Below, piece by piece: positions 1,854-21,816 of a stretch of 51,505 nt of DNA (position 1 is its first letter; every line of letters starts with the position of its first letter). The notes beneath the pieces were generated by a model. The model was not told the origin of the DNA, did not search any database, and saw only the letters and a list, made by a program, of their open reading frames with translations. The stretch is taken from NCBI GenBank assembly GCA_964373675.1, contig CAYJVO010000003.1:1-51505 (forward strand), in the 5' to 3' direction. This DNA is from an uncultured Candidatus Saccharibacteria bacterium (lineage in GTDB: Bacteria; Patescibacteriota; Minisyncoccia; UBA6257; WO2-44-18). Position numbers and translations under genes: made by a program.

Positions 1854-3248
1854 CTATTCAGGCATTTCTCGTACCCATATTATACTATGGGCGCTCGCCA
1901 GCAATATACCGATAATAAGCCACAGCATCAAGCGACCGGGTTGAAGAGTCCAAAGAAAATGATCAAAAAGACCAAAGACTAGCAACGATGACAACATGAC
2001 TATAACAATAACAGTTTGGACATTTTGGTTATTATAATTTTGAATTTGTTTAGAATTTAGAAATTTGACATTAGAAATTAACAAGCTAAGTAAAAATAAC
2101 AAAAACGCCGCGCCTCCTAAAATCCCGATCTCCGAACCAATTAGGATATAAATATTGTGTATCGGCTGCCATTGCCAGACCTCATTCATCCCAAACTGCT
2201 GATAGAAGCCGTTCTTAACCGATGATAAAACCTGATTACCGATTCCGATGCCTAGCGGGAATTTCTTTATGAGATCCCAACCCAGCTCGTTGTAATCCAG
2301 ACGTTGAACCAGCGCCGGCTCGCCCACCGAAACTTGAGCGCGGGAAAAAACGTAAGGGCTAAATGCGGCTAATAGCAAAGCGCCAATTGCTGACAGCGTT
2401 ATCAATAAACCGGCTGCCTGGCGACGACGCTCCTTTGCTGTCAAGGCGTAGCCAATAACCGCTAGCGTCGTCAATATAGCGATGGCCCAGGCGGTTCTGG
2501 AAAAAGTCAGTAAAAGACCGAGTGATATCAGGAAAATTCCGCTGGTCAGCGCTGTGGAATACGAATTTCGTACGAATATGTGAAAAATATTACCGCGGAT
2601 GGTTTCGTATATTTGTAATTTTTTCGTATTTCGTAGCCATAAATAGTACAACGCAAATAATCCGAGTAGTAAAAAGGCCGCTAGCACGTTCGGATGCGGT
2701 AAGGTGCCGTAAGCCCGCAAAATCGGCGCTCCTTCAACGATAATTTTCGCCGCTCCGCCGACCGTCGGCCCCAAAACCGATTCTCCTAGAATTCCCAGGC
2801 CCAAACTGGCTTGTCTGAAAAACTGCGCAATGCCAATTAATGATTGGAAAATCGCCGATGCGGCAATAACAGTAAAAATAGTTCTTACTCTCAAAACGCC
2901 GCCGCGGATCAACTGTCCAGTAGCGAGCGCAGTCAAAATCAGCAAGACCAACCGGACAAAATTATAAACCGCTAATCCCTTGGAATAAGCGAAGAGAATA
3001 GATGTAGCCGCGGATAGCAAAAAAACCGTTATAGCCATTCCGACGAAACTCATTCTTACGTTCTTAAGAACGTAAGAATGAGCGATGGAAAATAAAATCA
3101 AAAACGTTATAAGCAATACATCGCTTGCGTATAAAAATACCGCCTCGTATTCATGAAATCCAGTTGTGAATTGGCCAACCAAAACTCTTGTCCCAAAAGG
3201 GAGGGAAATCAGAAGGCCATACAAAGACCAGCGTGCCAGCCAAGACAT
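1854..3248 (-). CDS. O-antigen ligase (Wzy_C) family membrane protein
   Basis: Multi-TM protein with RAYGTLPHPN, TFSRTAW, GIGIGN and PIHNIYIL motifs; ATG at 3248 preferred over TTG at 3254. Confidence 0.85.
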   Translation of the reverse strand: MSWLARWSLYGLLISLPFGTRVLVGQFTTGFHEYEAVFLYASDVLLITFLILFSIAHSYVLKNVRMSFVGMAITVFLLSAATSILFAYSKGLAVYNFVRLVLLILTALATGQLIRGGVLRVRTIFTVIAASAIFQSLIGIAQFFRQASLGLGILGESVLGPTVGGAAKIIVEGAPILRAYGTLPHPNVLAAFLLLGLFALYYLWLRNTKKLQIYETIRGNIFHIFVRNSYSTALTSGIFLISLGLLLTFSRTAWAIAILTTLAVIGYALTAKERRRQAAGLLITLSAIGALLLAAFSPYVFSRAQVSVGEPALVQRLDYNELGWDLIKKFPLGIGIGNQVLSSVKNGFYQQFGMNEVWQWQPIHNIYILIGSEIGILGGAAFLLFLLSLLISNVKFLNSKQIQNYNNQNVQTVIVIVMLSSLLVFGLFDHFLWTLQPGRLMLWLIIGILLASAHSIIWVREMPE

Positions 3249-3262
3249 ACTCAAATTCTAAC

Positions 3263-3285: not shown

Positions 3286-3895
3286 AACGAATGACCTCTC
3301 TGGTAGGAACTACGAGATTGAACAAAGGTTGACTAGGATCAACAGTAAATCTGTTTTGTCCTGGATACCAGGTTACAACGGCATAATTCCACCAGGCATC
3401 CCTGGCATTAATGCAATGTGTGTACCCTCTGATGTCTAAGTGCTGGCCGGTTTCCAAAAAATACTTTAATTCAAACACTAACCGTTCCTCTAAAGTAATT
3501 ACCAATAATTTATTGGGGTTGTCTAAAGCTAGGGACAAGTCGGATTCAATATTGTCTTTGACCCAAACGGCGTAATTTTTGGAAAACTTGGGTTCAGGAA
3601 CAATAGCGTTCAAATCGGAGAATCTAGTAGTGACGATTTCCGACTTAGTGCTAATAACCTTCTCTATCCTGTTGAAAATTTGTTCCGACTTTAGTTCCGG
3701 AACGATAATCAGCAATCTATTATATCCTAACCGAGACTTCGGAATTCTTATAAAAGAAAAGCTGCGCTGAATCTCAAATTGCTCCTTATAAAATTTCTGC
3801 CATTCCCGAACTTCTTTTTCATAAGGATAATAACTGGAAACATCTCCGTGGGCTAAAAGGGGAAAGAGTAAAATAAGAGCGGTTAATATCCGCAT
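3284..3895 (-). CDS. Hypothetical exported protein
   Basis: 203-aa ORF with signal-peptide-like N terminus (MRILTALILLFPLLAHG). Confidence 0.65.
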   Translation of the reverse strand: MRILTALILLFPLLAHGDVSSYYPYEKEVREWQKFYKEQFEIQRSFSFIRIPKSRLGYNRLLIIVPELKSEQIFNRIEKVISTKSEIVTTRFSDLNAIVPEPKFSKNYAVWVKDNIESDLSLALDNPNKLLVITLEERLVFELKYFLETGQHLDIRGYTHCINARDAWWNYAVVTWYPGQNRFTVDPSQPLFNLVVPTREVIR

Positions 3896-3937
3896 TATCG
3901 CTCCCTTTCAAGTTTCTGCTTAAATTATAAGGGATTT

Positions 3938-4444
3938 TTAAAAAAAATCAACTGCGATCTCCACTACGTCGCTGGGCGCCCCAGAAAACCTTGTGGTTAT
4001 TATTACTCTATCAAAAACCTCTTTTATTTTTTTGGCCAATTTTTTGGCCAATTGATTTTCCGTGGTGGTCGCCTCCCAAACATCTCCTTTCTTTTTTATT
4101 TCTATTAATCGGTCCAGCGGATCGCGCTCAAAAGCTCGGTGGCAAAAATTGCGGATTAAACCGTCCAACTCGTCAGCGAATTTATCCGGCACGTTTTTTA
4201 TCACCACCCTGCCTTCGTATTGGCGATTTACAATCATCTGGCAAGCGGGGCAAATGGTAAAATGAATCGGCAAATCTTTATTGAAATTTTTTAACCCCTC
4301 CAGATCGTGATGCCACGATTTTTTAAAATAAGCGCTGGTGCATTTTTTGCATAAAACCAAACCCTTCTTGGCGCCAAATTCCTCAACTTCGTGCTGAGAC
4401 TTTGGCAACTTAATGTCGTAAGGTTTTTTAAAAATTTTAGCCAT
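3938..4444 (-). CDS. Conserved hypothetical protein with CxxC pairs (BCAM0308/NMD3-like)
   Basis: CKKC...W...CPAC...YEG...DPLDRLI...TTENQLA pattern; family assignment from memory, not searched. Confidence 0.55.
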   Translation of the reverse strand: MAKIFKKPYDIKLPKSQHEVEEFGAKKGLVLCKKCTSAYFKKSWHHDLEGLKNFNKDLPIHFTICPACQMIVNRQYEGRVVIKNVPDKFADELDGLIRNFCHRAFERDPLDRLIEIKKKGDVWEATTTENQLAKKLAKKIKEVFDRVIITTRFSGAPSDVVEIAVDFF

Positions 4445-5564
4445 AATTCACTACTCTTATTATTTCATACACTACCGCCGCCGCAAAGACCGAAAGCAAA
4501 AATATTGCTGTCGGAAGAGAAAATTTCAAACGCAAACCTTCTTGAATAACTACTTTTTTGGCTTTCAGCCACATCCAAACGATAAAAATTCCTTCTAAGC
4601 CCAAAAATATTCCTCCGGTAAAACTCACTAATTCTATAAAACTTTGGGAAATGAAAAAGTAAATAACTAAAGGTAGGCCAATTATTAAAACCGCCGCTAT
4701 CCAAAATGGAATTTTTAAATCCAATCGCATACTGTTTTTCACATCCAAACCAACCACGATGTAAGAACTGATAAGAGATAATATTCCCAGTAAACCAACC
4801 AATGCCAGCGCCCAATCCGGTATTTTTCCAAACAAACCGGAAACTGCGTCCTCGGAAACAAAATAAGTCAAGGACAAAATGCTTAATGAAAATGCCAAAT
4901 AGGCAATGGCGGAAACTGCTACCCCCAAAATGATGGATGCCTTAATAGCCCTCGGATTTTCGTAAAACCGAATTAAAGCTGGCATGGCCACCCTCCCTGA
5001 AAGAGCAAACAGCACCGGCGCCAGCGGCATCAAAATTTCCGGCCATAATGGCCGGAAATTTTGAGCTACTGCCCCGCTGAGACCGCTCATTCCAAAAACA
5101 AAAATCATAAATATGATTGCCAAAATACCCCCGCTGATCAAAAATTCTGCCAGCGCGATTCGTTTTAAACTGGCAAAAACCGCCAATGATCCTAATGCCC
5201 AAAAAATGAGCATCTTTACAACCGGATTGCCTGCCGCAAAGATCAAATTTCCGAAGCTCTGCGCCAAAATAAGGTAAATCGTCAAAACTAAAATCATCTC
5301 CGCAATCGTCATTAAAACGCTTAACCAAAATGCCCATCTTCCCAGATAAATTCTGGCATATCCGGCAAACCGATGATCTCCGATGGTCCGCAAAACTAAA
5401 TCCGCATACATCCAATAAGCAAAGATGTAAACGACGGAAGCCAAAATCAGATAAAAAATTCCGGTAGCGATGCCGGAATTTTTAAAAACAAAAGGCAAGG
5501 AAAACATTCCCGCCCCAATGATAGTCCCGATCAATAAGCCGGTTTGCAAAAAAAGCTTTGCCAT
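4437..5564 (-). CDS. Amino acid permease (aromatic amino acid/HAAAP-like)
   Basis: GTIIGAGMFSLP N-terminal APC-fold motif; about 11 TM segments. Confidence 0.85.
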   Translation of the reverse strand: MAKLFLQTGLLIGTIIGAGMFSLPFVFKNSGIATGIFYLILASVVYIFAYWMYADLVLRTIGDHRFAGYARIYLGRWAFWLSVLMTIAEMILVLTIYLILAQSFGNLIFAAGNPVVKMLIFWALGSLAVFASLKRIALAEFLISGGILAIIFMIFVFGMSGLSGAVAQNFRPLWPEILMPLAPVLFALSGRVAMPALIRFYENPRAIKASIILGVAVSAIAYLAFSLSILSLTYFVSEDAVSGLFGKIPDWALALVGLLGILSLISSYIVVGLDVKNSMRLDLKIPFWIAAVLIIGLPLVIYFFISQSFIELVSFTGGIFLGLEGIFIVWMWLKAKKVVIQEGLRLKFSLPTAIFLLSVFAAAVVYEIIRVVNYG

Positions 5565-6037: not shown

Positions 6038-6146
6038 GTTGCTAACGCATATAATGCCAATAATGCGAATATAGACGAATGCCACGAATAAAATGAATAT
6101 ATTTGCGGTATTCGCATGTAATGCGCATAGTTTGCATTATTTTAAT

Positions 6147-6416
6147 TTACTCCACTAAATACACTTCGTCGCCCTCTCTCACTTTTTCATCAACCTTAAT
6201 GCCAACCTCCTGTCCTTTCTTTGCCGTATCTATATCCTTATGCTCATACTGCATAGAATCCATCTTTTGGCGAAGATTGGTGGTGGCCCCCCGAATTTCA
6301 ACTTCTGTTCCCTTTTCTACGGCCTTATTAAACTTCACTATCGCCACTCCGATGCCGCCGTAATAATGAGTTACCACCCCAATCGGTTTTTCTTTTTTAA
6401 CTTTTTTTACCGCCAT
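6147..6416 (-). CDS. Small beta-barrel protein (EF-Tu domain II-like / U32 peptidase C-terminal-like)
   Basis: IGVVTHYYGGIGVAIV...SMQYEH...AKKGQEVGIKVDEKVREGDEVY. Confidence 0.7.
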   Translation of the reverse strand: MAVKKVKKEKPIGVVTHYYGGIGVAIVKFNKAVEKGTEVEIRGATTNLRQKMDSMQYEHKDIDTAKKGQEVGIKVDEKVREGDEVYLVE

Positions 6417-8508: not shown

Positions 8509-8538
8509 TCCAATACTCTCATTAATGAGAGTATTGGA
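8509..8538. repeat. Perfect 30-bp palindrome TCCAATACTCTCATTAATGAGAGTATTGGA
   Basis: Read directly; intergenic, about 20 nt upstream of the TATAAT of the beta-CASP gene. Confidence 0.9.
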
Positions 8539-8567: not shown

Positions 8568-8891
8568 CTAAGCAGGCGGATCTTCAAAAGAAAATTTATC
8601 TAACGCTAATCTCAATAATTCTCTGTCCTTGTCTGTTAATTTCAAATAGTTTAATAACTCTTTATTCGCGCCCAATAAAATAATGCACCCGGGGCAAGTG
8701 AGAATTTGCAAAACTTCTTTCTTCCCAATTTCCTGTCCTACCTGGAAACTATGACCATCTGCGCATTGATGCGTTGGCGTTGGTTTTGACCGCGACAAAC
8801 GCATGTTAATCTCGATCGGTTTTGGCGGCTTTGACAAAATCACCACTGCCACCGCTGCGGCCACCACCAAGATTGCAAGCAAAACAAACAT
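8568..8891 (-). CDS. Hypothetical membrane-anchored protein
   Basis: N-terminal TM helix; C..H and CPGC; resembles ORF 11948-12283 (C-terminal L.DK.LL..LL). Confidence 0.55.
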   Translation of the reverse strand: MFVLLAILVVAAAVAVVILSKPPKPIEINMRLSRSKPTPTHQCADGHSFQVGQEIGKKEVLQILTCPGCIILLGANKELLNYLKLTDKDRELLRLALDKFSFEDPPA

Positions 8892-9528: not shown

Positions 9529-10971
9529 TTAACCCTTAATTACTCCCACGGGTTTTAAGCGAGCGACTTTCTGAGCTAAACCGGCGCCATGAACCGCGTC
9601 CACCACTGCCTCTACATCTTTATAAGCAATCGGCGCTTCTTCGGCTAATCCGGCCATAGAACCTGATCGGACAGCGATTCCCTGATTTTCCAGTTCTTCT
9701 TTCAAAACAGAACCGCGAACCACTCTTTTCGCTTTAGTGCGCGACATCATTCTGCCGGCACCGTGACAAGAACTGCCAAAACTTAACTCCATTGCTCCGG
9801 GCGCACCAACCAAAACATAAGAAGCTGTGCCCATTGAACCAGGAATCAAAACCGGCTGCCCGACATTTTTATAAAGCTCAGGCGTCTCCTGATGTCCCGG
9901 AGGAAAAGCACGAGTCGCACCCTTACGATGCACCACCAACTTTTTCCCATCATACTCTTCTAATTTCGCCAAATTATGCGCCACATCATAAACCAACTTC
10001 AAATCCTCTTGACACTTGATGCTTGACGCTTGAAACGTCTTTGCCCACGCTTCTCTAATTTCCCAAGTAATAAATTGACGGTTCGCCCAGGCAAAATTGG
10101 CGCAGGCGACCATTGATTTCCAGTAGTTTTGGCCTTCCGGCGATTTGAAAGGCGCGCAAGCTAATTCCGGATCCGGTACTTTAATTCCATACTTTGGCAT
10201 GGCATCCATCATCACCCGGATGTAATCCGTGGCATTCTGATGACCAAGCCCTCGCGATCCGCAGTGAACCATCACTGTTATCTGATCTTTAAAAATCCCC
10301 ATCGCCTTCGCCGCTTCCTGATTAAAAATCTCGTCAACTCTTTGAACTTCCACAAAATGATTGCCTGCTCCGATAGTGCCGAGCTGATCGCGACCGCGGT
10401 CTTTAGCAATTTTGGAAACTAGTGAAGGATCGGCATCCGTAAGCCGACCGAGCGCCTCGCAATGTTCTTTGTCTTCTGCTGTGGCATACCCCGATTCAAT
10501 CATTTTATCCACGCCTTTTAACAAAACCTCATCCAATTCTTTATTGACTAAATTCAAACGACCGCCGCGCCCGACGCCGGAAGGAACCTCATGATAAATC
10601 TGAGTCGCTAAATCAGGAATTTGGTTTTTTATCCCTTGATAAGAATGAGGGGTTCGGATCAAACGGACGCCGCAGTTAATGTCGTATCCAATCCCGCCCG
10701 GAGAAATGACGCCGGTTTCCACGTCAAATGCCGCCACCCCGCCGATCGGAAATCCGTAGCCCTCGTGAATGTCCGGCATGGCCAAGGCCCACTTTTGAAT
10801 TCCCGGCAGAGTCGCAACATTTACTAATTGCTCAAGCGAGCGATCCTTAAACAAATCTTCAACCAATTTTTCATTGACAAACACCCTCGCCGGCACGCGC
10901 ATATCATTCCGATATTCCTTTGAGATTTCCCAAATGTATTCAGAAATTTTTTTAAGGTCGGATTTATTCAT
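9529..10971 (-). CDS. rtcB: RtcB RNA ligase
   Basis: MPDIHEGYGFPIG, GYDINCG, GAGNHF, HCGSRG, DVAHN, HRKGA, PGSMG, HGAGR, EEAP.AYK. Confidence 0.97.
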   Translation of the reverse strand: MNKSDLKKISEYIWEISKEYRNDMRVPARVFVNEKLVEDLFKDRSLEQLVNVATLPGIQKWALAMPDIHEGYGFPIGGVAAFDVETGVISPGGIGYDINCGVRLIRTPHSYQGIKNQIPDLATQIYHEVPSGVGRGGRLNLVNKELDEVLLKGVDKMIESGYATAEDKEHCEALGRLTDADPSLVSKIAKDRGRDQLGTIGAGNHFVEVQRVDEIFNQEAAKAMGIFKDQITVMVHCGSRGLGHQNATDYIRVMMDAMPKYGIKVPDPELACAPFKSPEGQNYWKSMVACANFAWANRQFITWEIREAWAKTFQASSIKCQEDLKLVYDVAHNLAKLEEYDGKKLVVHRKGATRAFPPGHQETPELYKNVGQPVLIPGSMGTASYVLVGAPGAMELSFGSSCHGAGRMMSRTKAKRVVRGSVLKEELENQGIAVRSGSMAGLAEEAPIAYKDVEAVVDAVHGAGLAQKVARLKPVGVIKG

Positions 10972-11024: not shown

Positions 11025-11333
11025 TCAATCCTCAAATCTTATGGGGTTAACAAGCACTTTAATCCCGTCTTTCTGCAAACATCCTTCACATATACCGCCA
11101 AACGGCGACTTCCCACCTTGTTCTTTCTTCGCTTGAAAGTAATAATACGAAGAACCCCTAGACCTACCGCTGAACAGTTTACCGCCCACAACCTTATGAT
11201 CCCGGTAGCTGCTTAAATCACAGTTTTGCTGGTCAAGCGGCGGCCCCTCGTAAGTTTCTTCAATGCAGCTAAAAACAATCTCATTCTTCTCACAAATGAC
11301 GCAACGGTAAGAAAATTCATGTTTTCTTTCCAT
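11025..11333 (-). CDS. Hypothetical protein, two CxxC
   Basis: 102-aa ORF with CVIC and CEGC. Confidence 0.5.
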   Translation of the reverse strand: MERKHEFSYRCVICEKNEIVFSCIEETYEGPPLDQQNCDLSSYRDHKVVGGKLFSGRSRGSSYYYFQAKKEQGGKSPFGGICEGCLQKDGIKVLVNPIRFED

Positions 11334-11399: not shown

Positions 11400-11429
11400 C
11401 ATGCCACTATCGCATGCGATAGTGGCATG
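11400..11429. promoter_or_regulatory. Perfect 30-bp palindrome immediately upstream of TATAAT (candidate operator or cassette end)
   Basis: CATGCCACTATCGCATGCGATAGTGGCATG; TATAAT at 11431-11436; ATG at 11444. Confidence 0.75.
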
Positions 11430-11443
11430 TTATAATCCCCCGC

Positions 11444-11893
11444 ATGGACATATCGAAAATACTAAACAATAAACATCGAACGGAATGGGAAGAAGCGGTG
11501 TGGACAGAAATTGTTAATCATTTGGCGACGGCGAAATCTCAAAAAGATTTCAAACAAATTTTAGACAAACTATTAAGCGAAGATGAGAAGCGCATAATTG
11601 TAAATCGGGTAGCAGTTTTGGCGCTTGTAAAATCAGGAAAAAGTTATTCAGAAATCGGTAGTGCGCTTTGGGTTTCGCCGGTAACCATCAGTACTGTAAA
11701 GAAAAATTTCTGGGATAAATCCGGGCATTATAAAAGCTGCCGATCAATACCGAACAAAAAGAAAGGGTGGGGCGGCGGGATGGAAACCAAAACTAAAAAA
11801 TCTTTTTGGGACGAACTATTTAACAACATAGATCTGTGGGATTTAATTACAAATCCGCCTCGTCCACCAGGAATTGGTTTAAAAAACAAATAA
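11444..11893 (+). CDS. TrpR-like (YerC/YecD) HTH protein, paralog 1
   Basis: LLSEDEK.II..R.AV..L...GKSYSEIGSALWVSPVTISTV: TrpR-type HTH pattern. Confidence 0.8.
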   Translation: MDISKILNNKHRTEWEEAVWTEIVNHLATAKSQKDFKQILDKLLSEDEKRIIVNRVAVLALVKSGKSYSEIGSALWVSPVTISTVKKNFWDKSGHYKSCRSIPNKKKGWGGGMETKTKKSFWDELFNNIDLWDLITNPPRPPGIGLKNK

Positions 11894-11901
11894 CGGAACA
11901 A

Positions 11902-11929
11902 TCACCACTATCGCATGCGATAGTGGTGA
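11902..11929. repeat. Perfect 28-bp palindrome, second copy of the CCACTATCGCATGCGATAGTGG core
   Basis: TCACCACTATCGCATGCGATAGTGGTGA, 9 nt after the stop of paralog 1. Confidence 0.9.
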
Positions 11930-11947
11930 AGGAAATAAAAAACCGGC

Positions 11948-12283
11948 CTACTTTGGGCCGGGTGGCATTTTCAATTTGATTGGCTCTAGAAGAAATTTCA
12001 AAAGCTTTTTATCGCTATCTAATAGTTTCAAGTCGTTTATTTTTTCCGGATGCCGTTCCAATTCTCCGAGGCATTCTCGACAAGACAAAACATGGCTGAA
12101 AGTCATTCTGAAAACCGGATCGGAAACGACAACTAGCGGCTGTTTGGAACTGCAGGGAAATGGCCAGTTGGTTTCCAAAAACCCAATCTGTTCTTTTAGT
12201 TTTCTAATATCATTCGCAGCGCAAAACACAAAGACTCCAAAAAAAGAGATAACACCAAGAAGCGCGGTCCAATACCAATCCAT
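11948..12283 (-). CDS. Hypothetical membrane-anchored protein
   Basis: N-terminal TM helix, H..SC.EC. Confidence 0.55.
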   Translation of the reverse strand: MDWYWTALLGVISFFGVFVFCAANDIRKLKEQIGFLETNWPFPCSSKQPLVVVSDPVFRMTFSHVLSCRECLGELERHPEKINDLKLLDSDKKLLKFLLEPIKLKMPPGPK

Positions 12284-12309: not shown

Positions 12310-12768
12310 TTAAATATCAAGTACGAGGCGGGTTTTGTAAAGATCGTCTTCTTTTTTTATATCCACTTCGTGATAAGTGACAGCTTTTATGTCTTCTTCG
12401 AATTTATCTACCGACGCTCCGGAAATTTCCGCCTCAATTTCATTATCTTTCAACTTTAAACTTTCCACTTTATAAACTCGCTTATTGATTTGGCTTCTCG
12501 CTAAAATCTCATTCAAAAAATCAACCAGCAAAGTGTTCGTATTCGCTGATTGAATTTTGATTTTTTCTGTCACTGTTTTCACGCGTGAAAGCAGTTTTTG
12601 GCGGCCCCCCAAAATGTCGGCGAGAGCTTCAGCGGCATTGATAAATAATTCCTCGATAGTTTTGCCGTAAACTTCAAAGCGCAAATCGGCAGTATGGCTA
12701 AGGATTTTATATTTCATCCCGTTAGAAGGGGCCCCAACTTCAGTTTTTCTATTATTTTTGTTATTCAT
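12310..12768 (-). CDS. Archease (RtcB cofactor)
   Basis: HTADL...YG.T.EELF.NA, L.DFLNE, IKAVTYH, VLDI C terminus; real start may be ATG 12717. Confidence 0.93.
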   Translation of the reverse strand: MNNKNNRKTEVGAPSNGMKYKILSHTADLRFEVYGKTIEELFINAAEALADILGGRQKLLSRVKTVTEKIKIQSANTNTLLVDFLNEILARSQINKRVYKVESLKLKDNEIEAEISGASVDKFEEDIKAVTYHEVDIKKEDDLYKTRLVLDI

Positions 12769-18995: not shown

Positions 18996-20333
18996 TTAGT
19001 GTTTTTCTAAATTCCCCCAATTTTCTCCGTAAGAAAAATCCACCTTCAAAAACACGGATAAATTATAAACCCCTTCCATAATTTCTTTAATTCTGGGTGC
19101 AACTTCTGTTAACAAATCCTTTTTGATTTCAAAAAGAAGTTCGTCGTGGATAGACAAAAGAAGCCGCGCTTCTTTTTGCCAGATTTTTCCCTGTTTTAGA
19201 AAATCTGTCACTTGGATCATTGCTAGTTTTATAATATCCGCCGCCAACCCCTGAATCGGCATATTGATCGCCGCCCGCTCAGCTTCCGCCGCCACCCGCC
19301 GATTTTCCGAAACGATGGCCGGCAGCCAACGCTTGCGGCCGTTCAAATTCTCCACATATCCAACCTCCCTTGCCTTATTAATCGTTTTTTCCTGCCAACG
19401 TTTTACTTCTGCAAAATCACTAAAATACTCGGCAATAAAATTCTCCGCCTCTTCACGGCTTAAACCTGTATTGCGAGCAAAAGCATCTGGCCCCATACCG
19501 TAAATAACGCCAAAATTCAAAGTTTTGGCAAAATGCCGTTGTTCTTTGGTAACTCTTTCCACCGGCATGTTAAAAACGTTAGCCGCCGTGATAGCGTGAA
19601 TGTCCAAATCTTTTTTGAATGCCTCAATCATTTTTGGATCCTTCGTCACTGAAGCAAGCACCCGCAATTCAATTTGGGAATAATCAAAAGAAACCAGAAG
19701 ATAGCTCTTTTCGGCGACAAAAACTTCCCGCACGCTTGGCGGCACATTCTGCAAATTGGGGTTTTGCGAGCTCAAACGGCCGGTGGCCGTACCGGTCTGC
19801 AAAAATTCCGTATGAATTCGGTTTCCTTTGTCCGTAGCGGCAAGTTCCTTCAGTGGTTCAATATAAGTTGATTTAATTTTAAAAAGCTCGCGGTATTTTA
19901 AAATTTTCTCTACTGCTGGATGGCGGTCCTTGATTTTCATCAACGCCTCCGCGTCCGTGGAAAATGAACCGGTTTTTCTTTTGGGGATGCCGCGAGTGTC
20001 TATTTTTAATTTCTCAAACAAAACTTCCGAAAGCTGTTTTGGCGAATTTAAATTAAATGGGAAACCAGCCAAGTCGTAAATTTTCTTCTCCAAACCAGCT
20101 AATTCTTTTGCCAAATCTTTGGACATCTTTTTCAAAAGCTTCGGGTCGGCCTTAATGCCGGTCTTCCGCATTTCTTCCAAAATCGGGATTAGCGGCAGTT
20201 CAATCTCGCGATAAATTTTTTCCAGCCCTTCTTCTTTCAATTTCTTCTCCAAAACTTCCGGCGAATCAGCCTTAACCAGGCCCGGCGCATCGGAATTCAA
20301 AAGCCATCGCGCGATTTCTATTTTAGTTATCAT
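18996..20333 (-). CDS. polA: DNA polymerase I, polymerase domain only
   Basis: TGRLSSQNPNLQN, DYSQIELR, AK.LNFG..YG, N.PIQG.AAD, HDEL. Confidence 0.93.
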   Translation of the reverse strand: MITKIEIARWLLNSDAPGLVKADSPEVLEKKLKEEGLEKIYREIELPLIPILEEMRKTGIKADPKLLKKMSKDLAKELAGLEKKIYDLAGFPFNLNSPKQLSEVLFEKLKIDTRGIPKRKTGSFSTDAEALMKIKDRHPAVEKILKYRELFKIKSTYIEPLKELAATDKGNRIHTEFLQTGTATGRLSSQNPNLQNVPPSVREVFVAEKSYLLVSFDYSQIELRVLASVTKDPKMIEAFKKDLDIHAITAANVFNMPVERVTKEQRHFAKTLNFGVIYGMGPDAFARNTGLSREEAENFIAEYFSDFAEVKRWQEKTINKAREVGYVENLNGRKRWLPAIVSENRRVAAEAERAAINMPIQGLAADIIKLAMIQVTDFLKQGKIWQKEARLLLSIHDELLFEIKKDLLTEVAPRIKEIMEGVYNLSVFLKVDFSYGENWGNLEKH

Positions 20334-20352: not shown

Positions 20353-20372
20353 CGTTTTGACGCGTCAAAACG
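20353..20372. repeat. Perfect 20-bp palindrome CGTTTTGACGCGTCAAAACG, downstream of TrpR-like paralog 2
   Basis: Read directly; 6 nt beyond the stop at 20379. Confidence 0.9.
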
Positions 20373-20378
20373 TTCCAG

Positions 20379-20843
20379 TTATGCGCGGCCGTTTTTAAGG
20401 CCCATTCCCGAGGGCCTGGGCGGATTTTTAAAAATTTCCCAAATATCAATATCGCCCAACAATTCTTCAAAAAGCGGCTTCTTACTTACGGTAATTGGTA
20501 AGGCCTTCTCCTTTTTAAGTTTTTTGAAGAAACGCTGGCTTCTGTAAATACCGGGGCTATTAAAAAAATTCTTTTTAAGAGCGCTGATGGTCGCTGGCGA
20601 CATCCACAAAATCCGACTAATTTCTCTGGGTCCTTTACCAGAACGCATCAATGCCACCGCCGCCAATCTTTTGGTTATTATTGATTTCTCGTACTCGCTA
20701 AACAACACATCAATAATCCTGCCTGTTTCTTGTTTGGTTTTAGTTCGGGCCAATTTTTCTAAAAATCTGTTCCACAAAAATTCCCGCCATTCAATCCTGT
20801 GTCGGCTCTGAAAATCTTCAACTTTTTCATTGGTTTTATTCAT
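20379..20843 (-). CDS. TrpR-like (YerC/YecD) HTH protein, paralog 2
   Basis: Aligns by eye with paralog 1 (HR.EW, SE.EK.II, SP.TIS, NPPRP.G.GLKN); ATG 20843 preferred. Confidence 0.8.
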   Translation of the reverse strand: MNKTNEKVEDFQSRHRIEWREFLWNRFLEKLARTKTKQETGRIIDVLFSEYEKSIITKRLAAVALMRSGKGPREISRILWMSPATISALKKNFFNSPGIYRSQRFFKKLKKEKALPITVSKKPLFEELLGDIDIWEIFKNPPRPSGMGLKNGRA

Positions 20844-20862
20844 AGTTATAACATTATACATC

Positions 20863-20886
20863 ACCGTTTTGACGCGTCAAAACGGT
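20863..20886. promoter_or_regulatory. Perfect 24-bp palindrome upstream of TATAAT (candidate operator or cassette end)
   Basis: ACCGTTTTGACGCGTCAAAACGGT; minus-strand TATAAT at 20858-20853. Confidence 0.75.
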
Positions 20887-20913
20887 AGTTAAAAAATTGG
20901 GAACGGTCCCCCC

Positions 20914-21816
20914 TCATTTATTTAGACGCTCCAACAGACTCTTAAAACCCAATTTTTGGAAATATTCCGCCAATTTTTCTTTATTCAGCTCCCCCGCCGA
21001 AAGCGAAGCGAGATCGCTGACGGCGATTGGGGCGTCGCGGCGGATGAAGGCTAGTTTTTTGGACATTAAAGCGATTTCTTTTTGCCCTTCCAGTTTTTTG
21101 GAAATTTTTTCCGGAATGATGCCAATGCTCGCGAAAACTTCTTCAAGGTTGCCGTATTCTTTTAAAAGCGGCTGGGCGGTTTTAGGCCCCACTCCCTTGA
21201 TGCCCGGGATGTTGTCGGAAACATCCCCCACCATTCCTTTGTAGTCCGCAAGCTGATTCGGTTTGAGTCCATACTTTTCTTCTACTCCTTTTTCGTCATA
21301 AATTACGGTTTCGGAAAGGCCAGTTTTTACAATTTGAGCCAATACTTTTTCATCGCGCACGAGCTGCAGCAAATCATTATCGCCAGAGAGAATCACTACT
21401 TTTAAATCCGAGCCATCTTGTGGTGAGCCTGTCGAACCACCAAATTGCTCCGCAAGCGTCCCGATAATATCGTCGGCTTCAAAACCCGGCACGTCAAAAG
21501 TTTTGACACCAAATGCCTCAAAAACATCTCGGGCCTTAATAATTTGCGGCACTAAATCATCGGCAGTCGGCGGCCGGTGAATTTTGTATTCTTTGAAAAT
21601 TTCATCGCGAAAAGTCGGCTCGGGACGGTCAAACGCGGCGGCGGCATAATCAGGTTTTTGTTCACGAAAAACTTTCAACAAAATTCCGCAAAGTCCGTAA
21701 ATCGCCCCGATCGGCTGGCCATCCGGCGTCGTCAAAGGCGGAAGCGCGTGAAAAAACCGATGAATCAACGCATTGGCGTCAATAAGTAATAAAACGTTCG
21801 TTTTCTTTTCTGCCAT
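20914..21816 (-). CDS. 5'-3' exonuclease (stand-alone PolA N-terminal domain)
   Basis: LIDANALIHR, AFD, EADDIIG, SGDND, GD.SDNIPGIKGVGPKTA. Confidence 0.93.
   Translation of the reverse strand: MAEKKTNVLLLIDANALIHRFFHALPPLTTPDGQPIGAIYGLCGILLKVFREQKPDYAAAAFDRPEPTFRDEIFKEYKIHRPPTADDLVPQIIKARDVFEAFGVKTFDVPGFEADDIIGTLAEQFGGSTGSPQDGSDLKVVILSGDNDLLQLVRDEKVLAQIVKTGLSETVIYDEKGVEEKYGLKPNQLADYKGMVGDVSDNIPGIKGVGPKTAQPLLKEYGNLEEVFASIGIIPEKISKKLEGQKEIALMSKKLAFIRRDAPIAVSDLASLSAGELNKEKLAEYFQKLGFKSLLERLNK

Follow-up and report, generated by a model that had tools for sequence, protein, structure and literature searches.

The DNA considered here is a 51.5-kb stretch (51,505 nucleotides of contig CAYJVO010000003.1, hereafter the window) from an uncultured Candidatus Saccharibacteria bacterium, a member of the Candidate Phyla Radiation (CPR/Patescibacteria), and it encodes two TrpR-like proteins whose genes are each enclosed by a pair of related palindromes. 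The first of these, gene 1, lies on the + strand between rtcB and the archease gene, with every neighbour on the - strand, and is bracketed by a 30-bp perfect palindrome directly before the TATAAT of its promoter and a 28-bp perfect palindrome after its stop codon, both of which contain one and the same 22-bp core, CCACTATCGCATGCGATAGTGG. This core is found exactly twice in the window, even when up to 3 mismatches are allowed, as against 0 expected from 100 shuffles. The outer bases of the two palindromes are unlike, yet symmetry is complete within each of them. The palindrome pair, its differing outer bases and the placement and orientation of the gene had been pointed out in an initial annotation of this DNA and are borne out here, with the addition that two small unannotated open reading frames (ORFs), ORF102 and ORF111, also intervene between rtcB and archease. 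The second gene, gene 2, encodes a paralogue 44% identical to the product of gene 1 and has a different palindrome pair of its own, CGTTTTGACGCGTCAAAACG, in agreement with the idea raised in that annotation that paralogues might each possess their own pair. We refer to a block of palindrome, promoter, gene and palindrome as a cassette; loci numbered L001 and so on are comparison loci drawn from genomes and metagenomes. The features of both cassettes and of their surroundings are collected in Table 1.

Table 1. Features of the two cassettes and their surroundings, in window coordinates (the two halves of a palindrome are joined by a hyphen)
Feature	Position	Strand	Description or basis
Upstream palindrome, cassette 1	11400..11429, core 11404-11425		CATGCCACTATCGCA-TGCGATAGTGGCATG; probable operator over -35/spacer, from the family frame and HisR/TrpR operator likeness
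Extended -10, TGTTATAAT	11428..11436	+	Read in the sequence; motif recurs after upstream palindromes of the family
TrpR-like gene 1, 149 aa	11444..11893	+	PF01371; model and Foldseek; PDB sequence matches; alignment
Downstream palindrome, cassette 1	11902..11929		TCACCACTATCGCA-TGCGATAGTGGTGA; 28 bp with 22-bp core; 5' of convergent terminator; not terminator-like itself
Right-end flank, AGGAAATAAAAAACCGGC	11930..11947		Within 90%-identity block common to window and L020
Palindrome in archease coding sequence	12572..12595		ACTGCTTTCACG-CGTGAAAACAGT; near-perfect, 24 bp; variable loop
Upstream palindrome, cassette 2	20863..20886		ACCGTTTTGACG-CGTCAAAACGGT; contains -35 TTGACG (20875-20880)
-10 TATAAT, cassette 2	20853..20858	-	9 nt ahead of ATG at 20843
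TrpR-like gene 2, 154 aa	20379..20843	-	Between polA 5'-3' exonuclease gene and polA polymerase-domain gene
Downstream palindrome, cassette 2	20353..20372		CGTTTTGACG-CGTCAAAACG; 6 nt past stop, 19 nt before ATG of polA polymerase-domain gene
rtcB	9529-10971	-	Neighbour of cassette 1
ORF102	11025-11333	-	Unannotated
ORF111	11948-12283	-	Unannotated
Archease gene	12310-12768	-	Neighbour of cassette 1
polA polymerase-domain gene	18996-20333		445 aa
polA 5'-3' exonuclease gene	20914-21816		300 aa

The TrpR-like protein and its putative operators

The product of gene 1 belongs to the Pfam family Trp_repressor (PF01371; residues 20-98 score 42.8 bits, the cut-off being 27, at E 5.6e-11), which is the only family to pass the Pfam cut-off for this 149-aa protein, other helix-turn-helix (HTH) families giving weak, sub-threshold scores. 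In an AlphaFold2 model, with predicted local distance difference test scores of 86-95 over residues 11-90, residues 1-100 adopt the TrpR fold and superpose on Escherichia coli TrpR and the Staphylococcus aureus YerC-type protein 3kor, with the all-helical architecture of TrpR and the HTH formed by helices D-E. The best Foldseek matches include 3kor, 1tro and 6f9k (probability 1.00, TM ~0.65 when normalised to target length, root-mean-square deviation ~2 Å over 77 residues). Sequence matches in the PDB are to 3kor, 3frw and 3g1c, TrpR-like proteins from structural genomics, of which 3g1c has been identified as a HisR (PMC9413887). The C-terminal ~50 residues are modelled with low confidence and contain a motif conserved in the alignment, DLWDLIxNPPRPxGxGLK. 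The protein fails the NCBIfam equivalog cut-offs for both TrpR (TIGR01321, 24 against 67.25 bits) and YerC/YecD (TIGR02531, 21.1 against 42.2 bits). Given these sub-cut-off scores and the conserved C-terminal extension, the proteins form a separate branch of the TrpR/HisR superfamily. To our knowledge, the Trp and His pathways are generally missing from CPR genomes.

A Pfam scan found no transposase or recombinase catalytic domain in the gene 1 product. Membership of a defence system or of a phage protein family was likewise rejected, since PADLOC gave 0 matches and PHROG a single non-significant one (E 0.006); IMG/VR, GenBank phages and PLSDB plasmids contained no relatives of the protein.

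All sites examined in the family fit the frame RCTATSN-N4-NSATAGY, with 7-nt arms and a 4-nt self-complementary centre, in which the cassette-1 site reads CCACTATCGCA-TGCGATAGTGG. The operators of HisR (=YerC) and TrpR are 20-bp palindromes of lineage-specific consensus, cacTTTAnnnnnnTAAAgtg for HisR and TGTAcTnGTnnACnAgTACA for TrpR (PMC9413887), and the cassette-1 site written as a 20-bp frame (CACTATCGCA-TGCGATAGTG) has the length and the outer CACT..AGTG of these published operators. Over 15 distinct sites CTAT (positions 4-7) is nearly invariant, and the variable positions are still complementary (15 of 15 at positions 3 and 8-10, 13 of 15 at position 11), counts that carry an ascertainment bias because the sites were partly chosen for being palindromic. 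Along the orthologue series CCACTATCGCA, CCACTACTCCA, CCACTATCTTA and CACTACTCCT/CCACTATCCCT each change is mirrored on the other arm.

The position of these sites relative to promoters is equally regular. In cassette 1 the TG at the end of the upstream palindrome, a T and TATAAT (11431-11436) make up the extended -10, and the ATG (11444) follows 7 nt past TATAAT; owing to this proximity of the start codon, the mRNA of cassette 1 would be leaderless or nearly so. In cassette 2 the promoter TTGACG-16-TATAAT agrees with the consensus at 11 of 12 positions. The upstream copy ends 1-5 nt before the extended -10 in most loci, and TGnTAnnnT follows it in cassette 1 of the window (W1) and in L001, L002, L005, L006, L008, L011, L013, L020 and L023. 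Upstream sites abut either this motif or a -35/-10 pair, the extended -10 sitting 6-9 nt before the start codon. As far as can be judged from sequence, this is the placement of a classical autorepressor site, and the palindromes resemble operators of the TrpR/HisR type that overlie the promoter of the gene itself. Furthermore, as sites differ between two cassettes of the same genome, the determinant of recognition would travel with the cassette, and such cassette-specific sites point to the encoded protein, rather than a host factor, as the recogniser.

At the 3' end, gene 1 stops with TAA and 8 nt separate the stop from the downstream palindrome, beyond which the right-end flank overlaps the T-tract of a minus-strand terminator (11943-11961) belonging to the archease-ORF111 unit. 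Folded as single-stranded DNA, the upstream and downstream sites of cassette 1 give -14.3 and -12.5 kcal/mol (z = -7.8 and -7.2). Intrinsic termination by the palindromes was considered and rejected, since a terminator scan does not flag them, T-runs are missing, and separate terminators are present at 11943-11961 and 20899-20913. ORF102 and ORF111 were also rejected as parts of the cassette, neither having a homologue that adjoins any other member of the TrpR-like family.

Recurrence, probable exchange and symmetry of the cassettes

A profile search for the family returned 623 cluster representatives at E ≤1e-3, and 21 CPR loci from genomes and metagenomes were examined. A word of at least 12 nt common to the 200 nt 5' and the 150 nt 3' of the gene was found in 15 of these 21 homologues, as against 5% of 201 control ORFs, which include neighbours that touch the same palindromic sites. 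A perfect palindrome whose arms measure 9 nt or more lies upstream of the gene at 16 loci and downstream at 18, and paired sites are seen in metagenome-assembled genomes of Parcu-, Harrison-, Lipton- and Saccharibacteria as well as on metagenome contigs. Hence the prediction of the initial annotation that homologues generally possess paired palindromes holds for most of them. In most members of the family a downstream operator-like site follows 0-45 nt past the stop codon. Sites frequently extend beyond the basic frame, or are doubled to give super-palindromes of 38-46 bp, and two cassettes on one contig (L004 and L009) again differ in their sites. The palindrome and -10 located 5' of the gene are tandemly duplicated in L020 (2885-2982) and L011 (452-560), resulting in three flanking palindromes and two promoters, and the L020 duplicate also takes in the first 15 nt of the ORF. 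Metagenome contigs often end inside or just past palindromes (L010 at its start, L013-L015 at their ends), and repeated perfect palindromes probably break the assemblies of these organisms.

Going by the closest relatives of its PolA and Mur ligase, the window derives from a CPR bacterium of Parcubacteria/Harrisonbacteria type. Comparison with relatives revealed alleles without a cassette at both window loci. Mur ligase, archease and RtcB follow one another in L035 and L037 as well, and no cassette separates archease from rtcB there, the two genes being 107 nt apart or overlapping. The RtcB gene of L035 (6799-9717) carries an intein, and in L034 a reverse-transcriptase (RVT_1) gene (3994-4983) adjoins the Mur ligase. 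At the locus of cassette 2, DNA polymerase I is encoded by two genes, and four relatives (PolA 59-73% identical) keep the order RuvB, TsaE, 5'-3' exonuclease, PolA(pol) and Fpg, with a gap between the exonuclease and polymerase genes of 0-100 nt versus 580 nt in the window. These four empty sites (L016-L019) contain neither a TrpR-like gene nor a matching palindrome, and no target-site duplication is visible at the cassette-2 junctions. The annotation had envisaged empty sites that retain a single palindrome; the empty alleles do exist, but none has kept one. The possibility that cassette 2 split polA was rejected, as polymerase-domain-only PolA (~430-525 aa) is the norm among the CPR relatives listed. 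A separate exonuclease gene is present in 4 of 4 relatives examined at this locus. The polymerase-domain protein of the window almost lacks the 3'-5' exonuclease-like domain, and because a terminator scan found none between gene 2 and its gene, the latter may now be transcribed from the cassette-2 promoter. The empty gap of L018 (3901-4000) contains an inverted repeat of 12 nt, CACTAATATACT..AGTATATTAGTG, whose arms open with the family CACTA motif and are separated by 45 nt; this repeat is unrelated to the cassette palindromes.

L020 is syntenic with the window, its genes being arranged as methyltransferase, cassette, archease remnant and Mur ligase. Its TrpR-like orthologue is 91% identical to gene 1, and only the 22-bp core is symmetric there, so the symmetric 4- and 3-bp extensions arose in the window lineage. 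The two loci share 90% identity from 11403 to 11947 only, starting at the left-hand border of the upstream core and ending 18 nt beyond the downstream palindrome, with flanks of 56-68%. Synonymous divergence (dS) is 0.38 for the TrpR-like gene, with a non-synonymous divergence (dN) of 0.04, versus a dS of 2.8 for archease (dN 0.27), 4.5 for the Mur ligase (dN 0.24) and saturation for the methyltransferase (dN 0.44). This low dS is confined to the cassette, which is therefore much younger than its host genomes. More distant orthologues, of 59-69% identity, stand in unrelated contexts (sugar-modification genes; NUDIX/TopA/DprA; a tRNA and Band_7). Taken together, the block from palindrome to palindrome appears, on sequence comparison, to behave as a laterally exchanged unit.

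Certain neighbours of family members do recur. RtcB or archease adjoin the gene in the window, L020 and L026, RtcB being co-directional and downstream in the last (3453-4853). Other co-directional downstream neighbours are a DUF4147/MOFRL (glycerate-kinase-like) gene in L007 (3794-5077) and L009 (4557-5861) and a trypsin/HtrA-like protease gene in L004 (4554-5738) and L029 (3467-4750). A PD-(D/E)XK nuclease gene (PDDEXK_1) lies directly 5' of the TrpR-like gene on the same strand in L003 (3186-3869) and L008 (3003-3854), an arrangement thus present in two distant lineages, Harrisonbacteria and Saccharibacteria. Further neighbours include polA, UvrA, DnaG, TopA/DprA and RNase H.

Related palindromes also occur outside the cassettes. 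The near-perfect palindrome within the archease coding sequence of the window agrees with the cassette-2 core at 15 of 18 positions, a match of which chance alone would yield 0.05, and may serve as an additional operator or as a landing site. At the equivalent archease codons L035 (~6379-6402) has a different palindrome, with two compensatory pair changes and one G-T pairing, and L037, whose archease is four codons shorter, has none. At exactly this position L020 (3988-4009) and L010 bear a solo cassette-1 palindrome, a fourth copy, which marks a deletion junction where the N-terminal half of archease is gone and whose two flanks are inverted copies of the cassette right-end sequence. Searches of the window for further operators (CTAT-N8-ATAG, and with mismatches) returned only the cassette sites, the archease site and one non-palindromic chance match. 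Distant extra copies are found in L008 (7781), in L004 (2865, of the L009 type and on the same contig) and in L020 (6082/6135). In L020 the stretch 6076-6152 holds a tandem repeat of two operator-type palindromes, GGTGCTATCAT(GT/AC)ATGATAGCACC, 53 nt apart, which precede a GC-rich, structured-looking non-coding stretch with no Rfam match. An RNA-family search over the palindromes and in L020 recovered only a tRNA at 1707-1778.

The two palindromes of L038 are unlike at two half-site positions, yet symmetry is perfect within both. The window contains 9 perfect palindromes whose arms span 10 nt or more, as against 0.9 expected. They include palindromes of 34 bp (3049-3082) within the coding sequence of a Wzy_C-like membrane protein (1854-3254, - strand) and of 35 bp (5030-5064) within that of a Trp_Tyr_perm permease (4437-5564, - strand), the latter in a variable loop whose length is unchanged in the L034 and L036 homologues. 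Another perfect palindrome, of 30 bp (8509-8538, TCCAATACTCTCATT-AATGAGAGTATTGGA), lies just 3' of an ORF for a 107-aa membrane-anchored protein (8568-8891), a paralogue of ORF111 (30% identity, E 2e-4); neither protein matches Pfam or NCBIfam. Quasipalindrome template switching occurs in E. coli (PMC7202029), and in view of L038, the window-specific extensions, the inverted flanks in L020/L010 and the excess of window palindromes, hairpin-templated symmetrising probably acts on top of any binding selection. The selection on pairing that the initial annotation had seen in the differing outer bases is thus not established, as hairpin-templated mutation could equally give such symmetry and palindromes of 34-35 bp occur in unrelated coding sequences.

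Weighing the explanations

We favour, with modest confidence, the explanation that each cassette is a self-contained, autorepressed regulator from a CPR-specific branch of the TrpR/HisR family with operators on both sides, which is laterally exchanged as a block. For binding and repression, for the function of the second site and for the mode of movement, we infer the following scheme. The 149-aa protein, most likely as a dimer, would bind the 18-22-bp palindrome (RCTATSN-N4-NSATAGY), and the occupied upstream copy would cover the -35/spacer region against the extended -10 and turn the gene's own promoter off (negative autoregulation). The second operator, after the stop, and the upstream one might act co-operatively across a loop of ~500 bp, perhaps by way of the C-terminal extension; alternatively or additionally, the bound downstream operator could form a boundary against transcription entering the cassette. 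The whole block would be the unit of turnover, inserted between genes that are direct neighbours in relatives, each paralogous cassette carrying its own site sequence, and the outward-growing perfect symmetry would probably be kept by hairpin-templated correction and not by protein binding alone. The initial annotation had offered an autoregulated HTH protein and a mobile cassette as alternatives. The two are compatible and part of each is supported: operator-like sites over the promoter and exchange as a block stand, and transposition through hairpin or cruciform ends is not established.

Several observations weigh against this scheme. Repression is deduced from the position of the sites alone, and the symmetry counts are subject to the bias mentioned above. 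The spacing of the operators (457-554 bp) shows no significant helical phasing (Rayleigh p ~0.1), leaving looping through the downstream operator, also proposed by the annotation, unsupported. The window sites flank only their own gene, apart from the degenerate archease copy, and a regulator of nothing but itself is physiologically implausible. Some homologues have no clear pair (none in L026, one side within the scanned flanks in L004 and L025, imperfect sites in L007). The palindrome search at the empty sites (L016-L019, L035, L037) found none, nor is there a target-site duplication. The perfect symmetry extends over 28-46 bp, including bases that TrpR-type proteins rarely contact, and so exceeds what binding selection would give. 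Finally, in several distant homologues the downstream site lies on the promoter of a co-directional neighbour (DUF4147 in L007/L009, HtrA-like in L029), which for these members would be ordinary local regulation and not a cassette boundary. In the group of gene-1 orthologues (window, L011, L013, L038) the downstream site faces a convergent gene or terminator, and so is no promoter operator there. The family as a whole probably has targets beyond itself.

This last point leads to the possibility that the TrpR-like gene is an ordinary chromosomal local regulator, its downstream and other palindromes being operators of neighbouring or distant targets (RNA/DNA repair and stress genes) and its apparent mobility reflecting the fast gene gain, loss and transformation-mediated replacement of the CPR. 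Such a regulator would fit the recurrence of RtcB/archease, DUF4147/MOFRL, HtrA-like and PD-(D/E)XK neighbours in unrelated lineages, the other neighbours from polA to RNase H, the downstream site of L007 located 12 nt ahead of the TAAAAT -10 of the next gene, the distant extra sites of L008, L004 and L020, the operator-like palindromes within archease (window and L035) and the lack of a terminator between cassette 2 and the polymerase-domain gene. We nevertheless consider it unlikely, since the downstream site faces a convergent gene or terminator in the four loci just named, close orthologues have different neighbours, and a tenfold contrast in dS bounded by palindromes is unexpected from generic gene turnover. 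The bounded block of recent ancestry would also fit a true mobile element, with the palindromes as recombination ends (hairpins or cruciforms), the HTH protein as the end-recognition factor, a host enzyme or an unrecognised activity of the TrpR-like protein for cutting and joining, and autoregulation as a secondary matter. Insertion relative to empty sites at two loci, varying neighbours among orthologues of 59-69% identity, the tandem duplicates of palindrome and promoter (L020, L011), the solo palindrome with inverted right-end flanks at the archease deletion junction (L020/L010) and the cassette-specific sites, which argue for recognition by a cassette-encoded protein, all agree with this. 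Yet only Trp_repressor passes the Pfam cut-off and there is no catalytic domain; PADLOC has no match, PHROG no significant one, and IMG/VR, phages and plasmids no relatives; target-site duplications are missing and empty sites lack palindromes. Moreover, each site type in the window is confined to its own cassette, giving no sign of multiple transposed copies, and the copies are individually symmetric where they differ (window, L038), unlike hybrid att sites. A mobile element in this strict sense is hence also improbable in our judgment.

Very improbable indeed is an explanation by RNA hairpins (a 3' terminator or mRNA stabiliser and a 5' attenuator) unrelated to DNA binding by the protein. 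In favour of such hairpins, transcription includes the downstream copy, whose RNA would fold into a 12-13-bp stem, the central bases too have retained their symmetry, and the archease site of L035 contains one G-T pairing. However, the upstream copy lies 5' of the -10, outside the transcript of the gene, T-runs are lacking and separate canonical terminators follow the palindromes, a 3' hairpin alone would not require identical upstream and downstream copies, and the invariant CTAT..ATAG arms together with the HisR/TrpR-like 20-bp frame point to protein recognition. Going beyond the autorepressed and exchanged block that we prefer, one may speculate, as a rather doubtful extension, that these are minimal CPR mobile elements ("operator-bounded repressor cassettes"), in which the TrpR-like protein recognises the two palindromic ends of its own cassette, keeps it silent and also guides it during excision, integration or replacement, with palindromes as landing sites, including ones seeded in host genes such as archease, so that insertion places neighbours (the polA polymerase-domain gene, archease, rtcB) under cassette control.

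Relation to known regulators and mobile modules

The genomes of CPR bacteria are tiny and have few recognisable regulators, and we know of almost no experimentally defined regulatory sites in them. The present family comprises dozens of natural specificity variants with a putative cognate site written twice beside each gene, and such protein-site pairs allow a direct test of how proteins with the TrpR fold recognise DNA and how uncultivated bacteria control their genes. If it is true that the block moves as a unit, it would be among the smallest self-regulating mobile modules known, and would show how a repressor can travel with its operators and bring nearby repair genes (polA, RtcB/archease) under new control. 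As far as a limited literature search shows, the arrangement of a gene with two such sites is previously undescribed.

Among the closest known systems is trpR, with its autoregulation by a 20-bp palindromic operator. The likeness to HisR (YerC) and TrpR consists in the fold, PF01371 and the 20-bp palindrome frame with outer CACT..AGTG over the promoter. HisR is usually single-copy (PMC9413887), whereas several paralogues per genome are found here. Unlike HisR and TrpR, the proteins of this family have a ~50-aa C-terminal extension, a second putative operator lies just past the stop, and there is lateral exchange; the cassette sites are perfect and up to 46 bp long, and no amino-acid biosynthesis regulon is evident.

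Modular mobility without a dedicated recombinase is known from the pdif modules of Acinetobacter plasmids and from the integrative mobile elements that exploit Xer (IMEX), which are small recombinase-less modules with short inverted-repeat sites shuffled between replicons (PMC6449649). The cassettes resemble them as small gene modules bracketed by short sites and devoid of their own recombinase. The pdif sites, however, are asymmetric 28-bp XerC-6-XerD sites common to all modules of a host, whereas the cassette sites are symmetric and of 18-46 bp. Since the sites also differ between the two cassettes within one genome, which one host recombinase would hardly serve alike, ends of the Xer/dif type were rejected.

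In the immunity region of lambdoid phages the repressor gene stands between OL and OR, CI bound to them co-operates over a long range by looping, and the block of repressor and operators is exchanged between genomes as a specificity module. The cassettes likewise consist of a repressor-like gene bracketed by its own putative operators and exchanged as a block; the lambdoid system differs in its protein family, its three-site operator arrays and its divergent lytic promoters, and the cassettes have no phage context. Finally, in REPtrons, genes for REP-associated tyrosine transposases (RAYTs), which are HUH tyrosine transposases, are flanked by repetitive extragenic palindromes (REPs) that exist in many dispersed copies. 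The cassettes share with REPtrons and with the Rickettsia palindromic elements a gene flanked by palindromes and in-frame palindromes within coding sequences (archease, permease, Wzy-like). They differ from REPtron/RAYT systems and from insertion sequences of the IS200/IS605 type in that the encoded protein has no catalytic domain and each type of palindrome is essentially confined to its own cassette.

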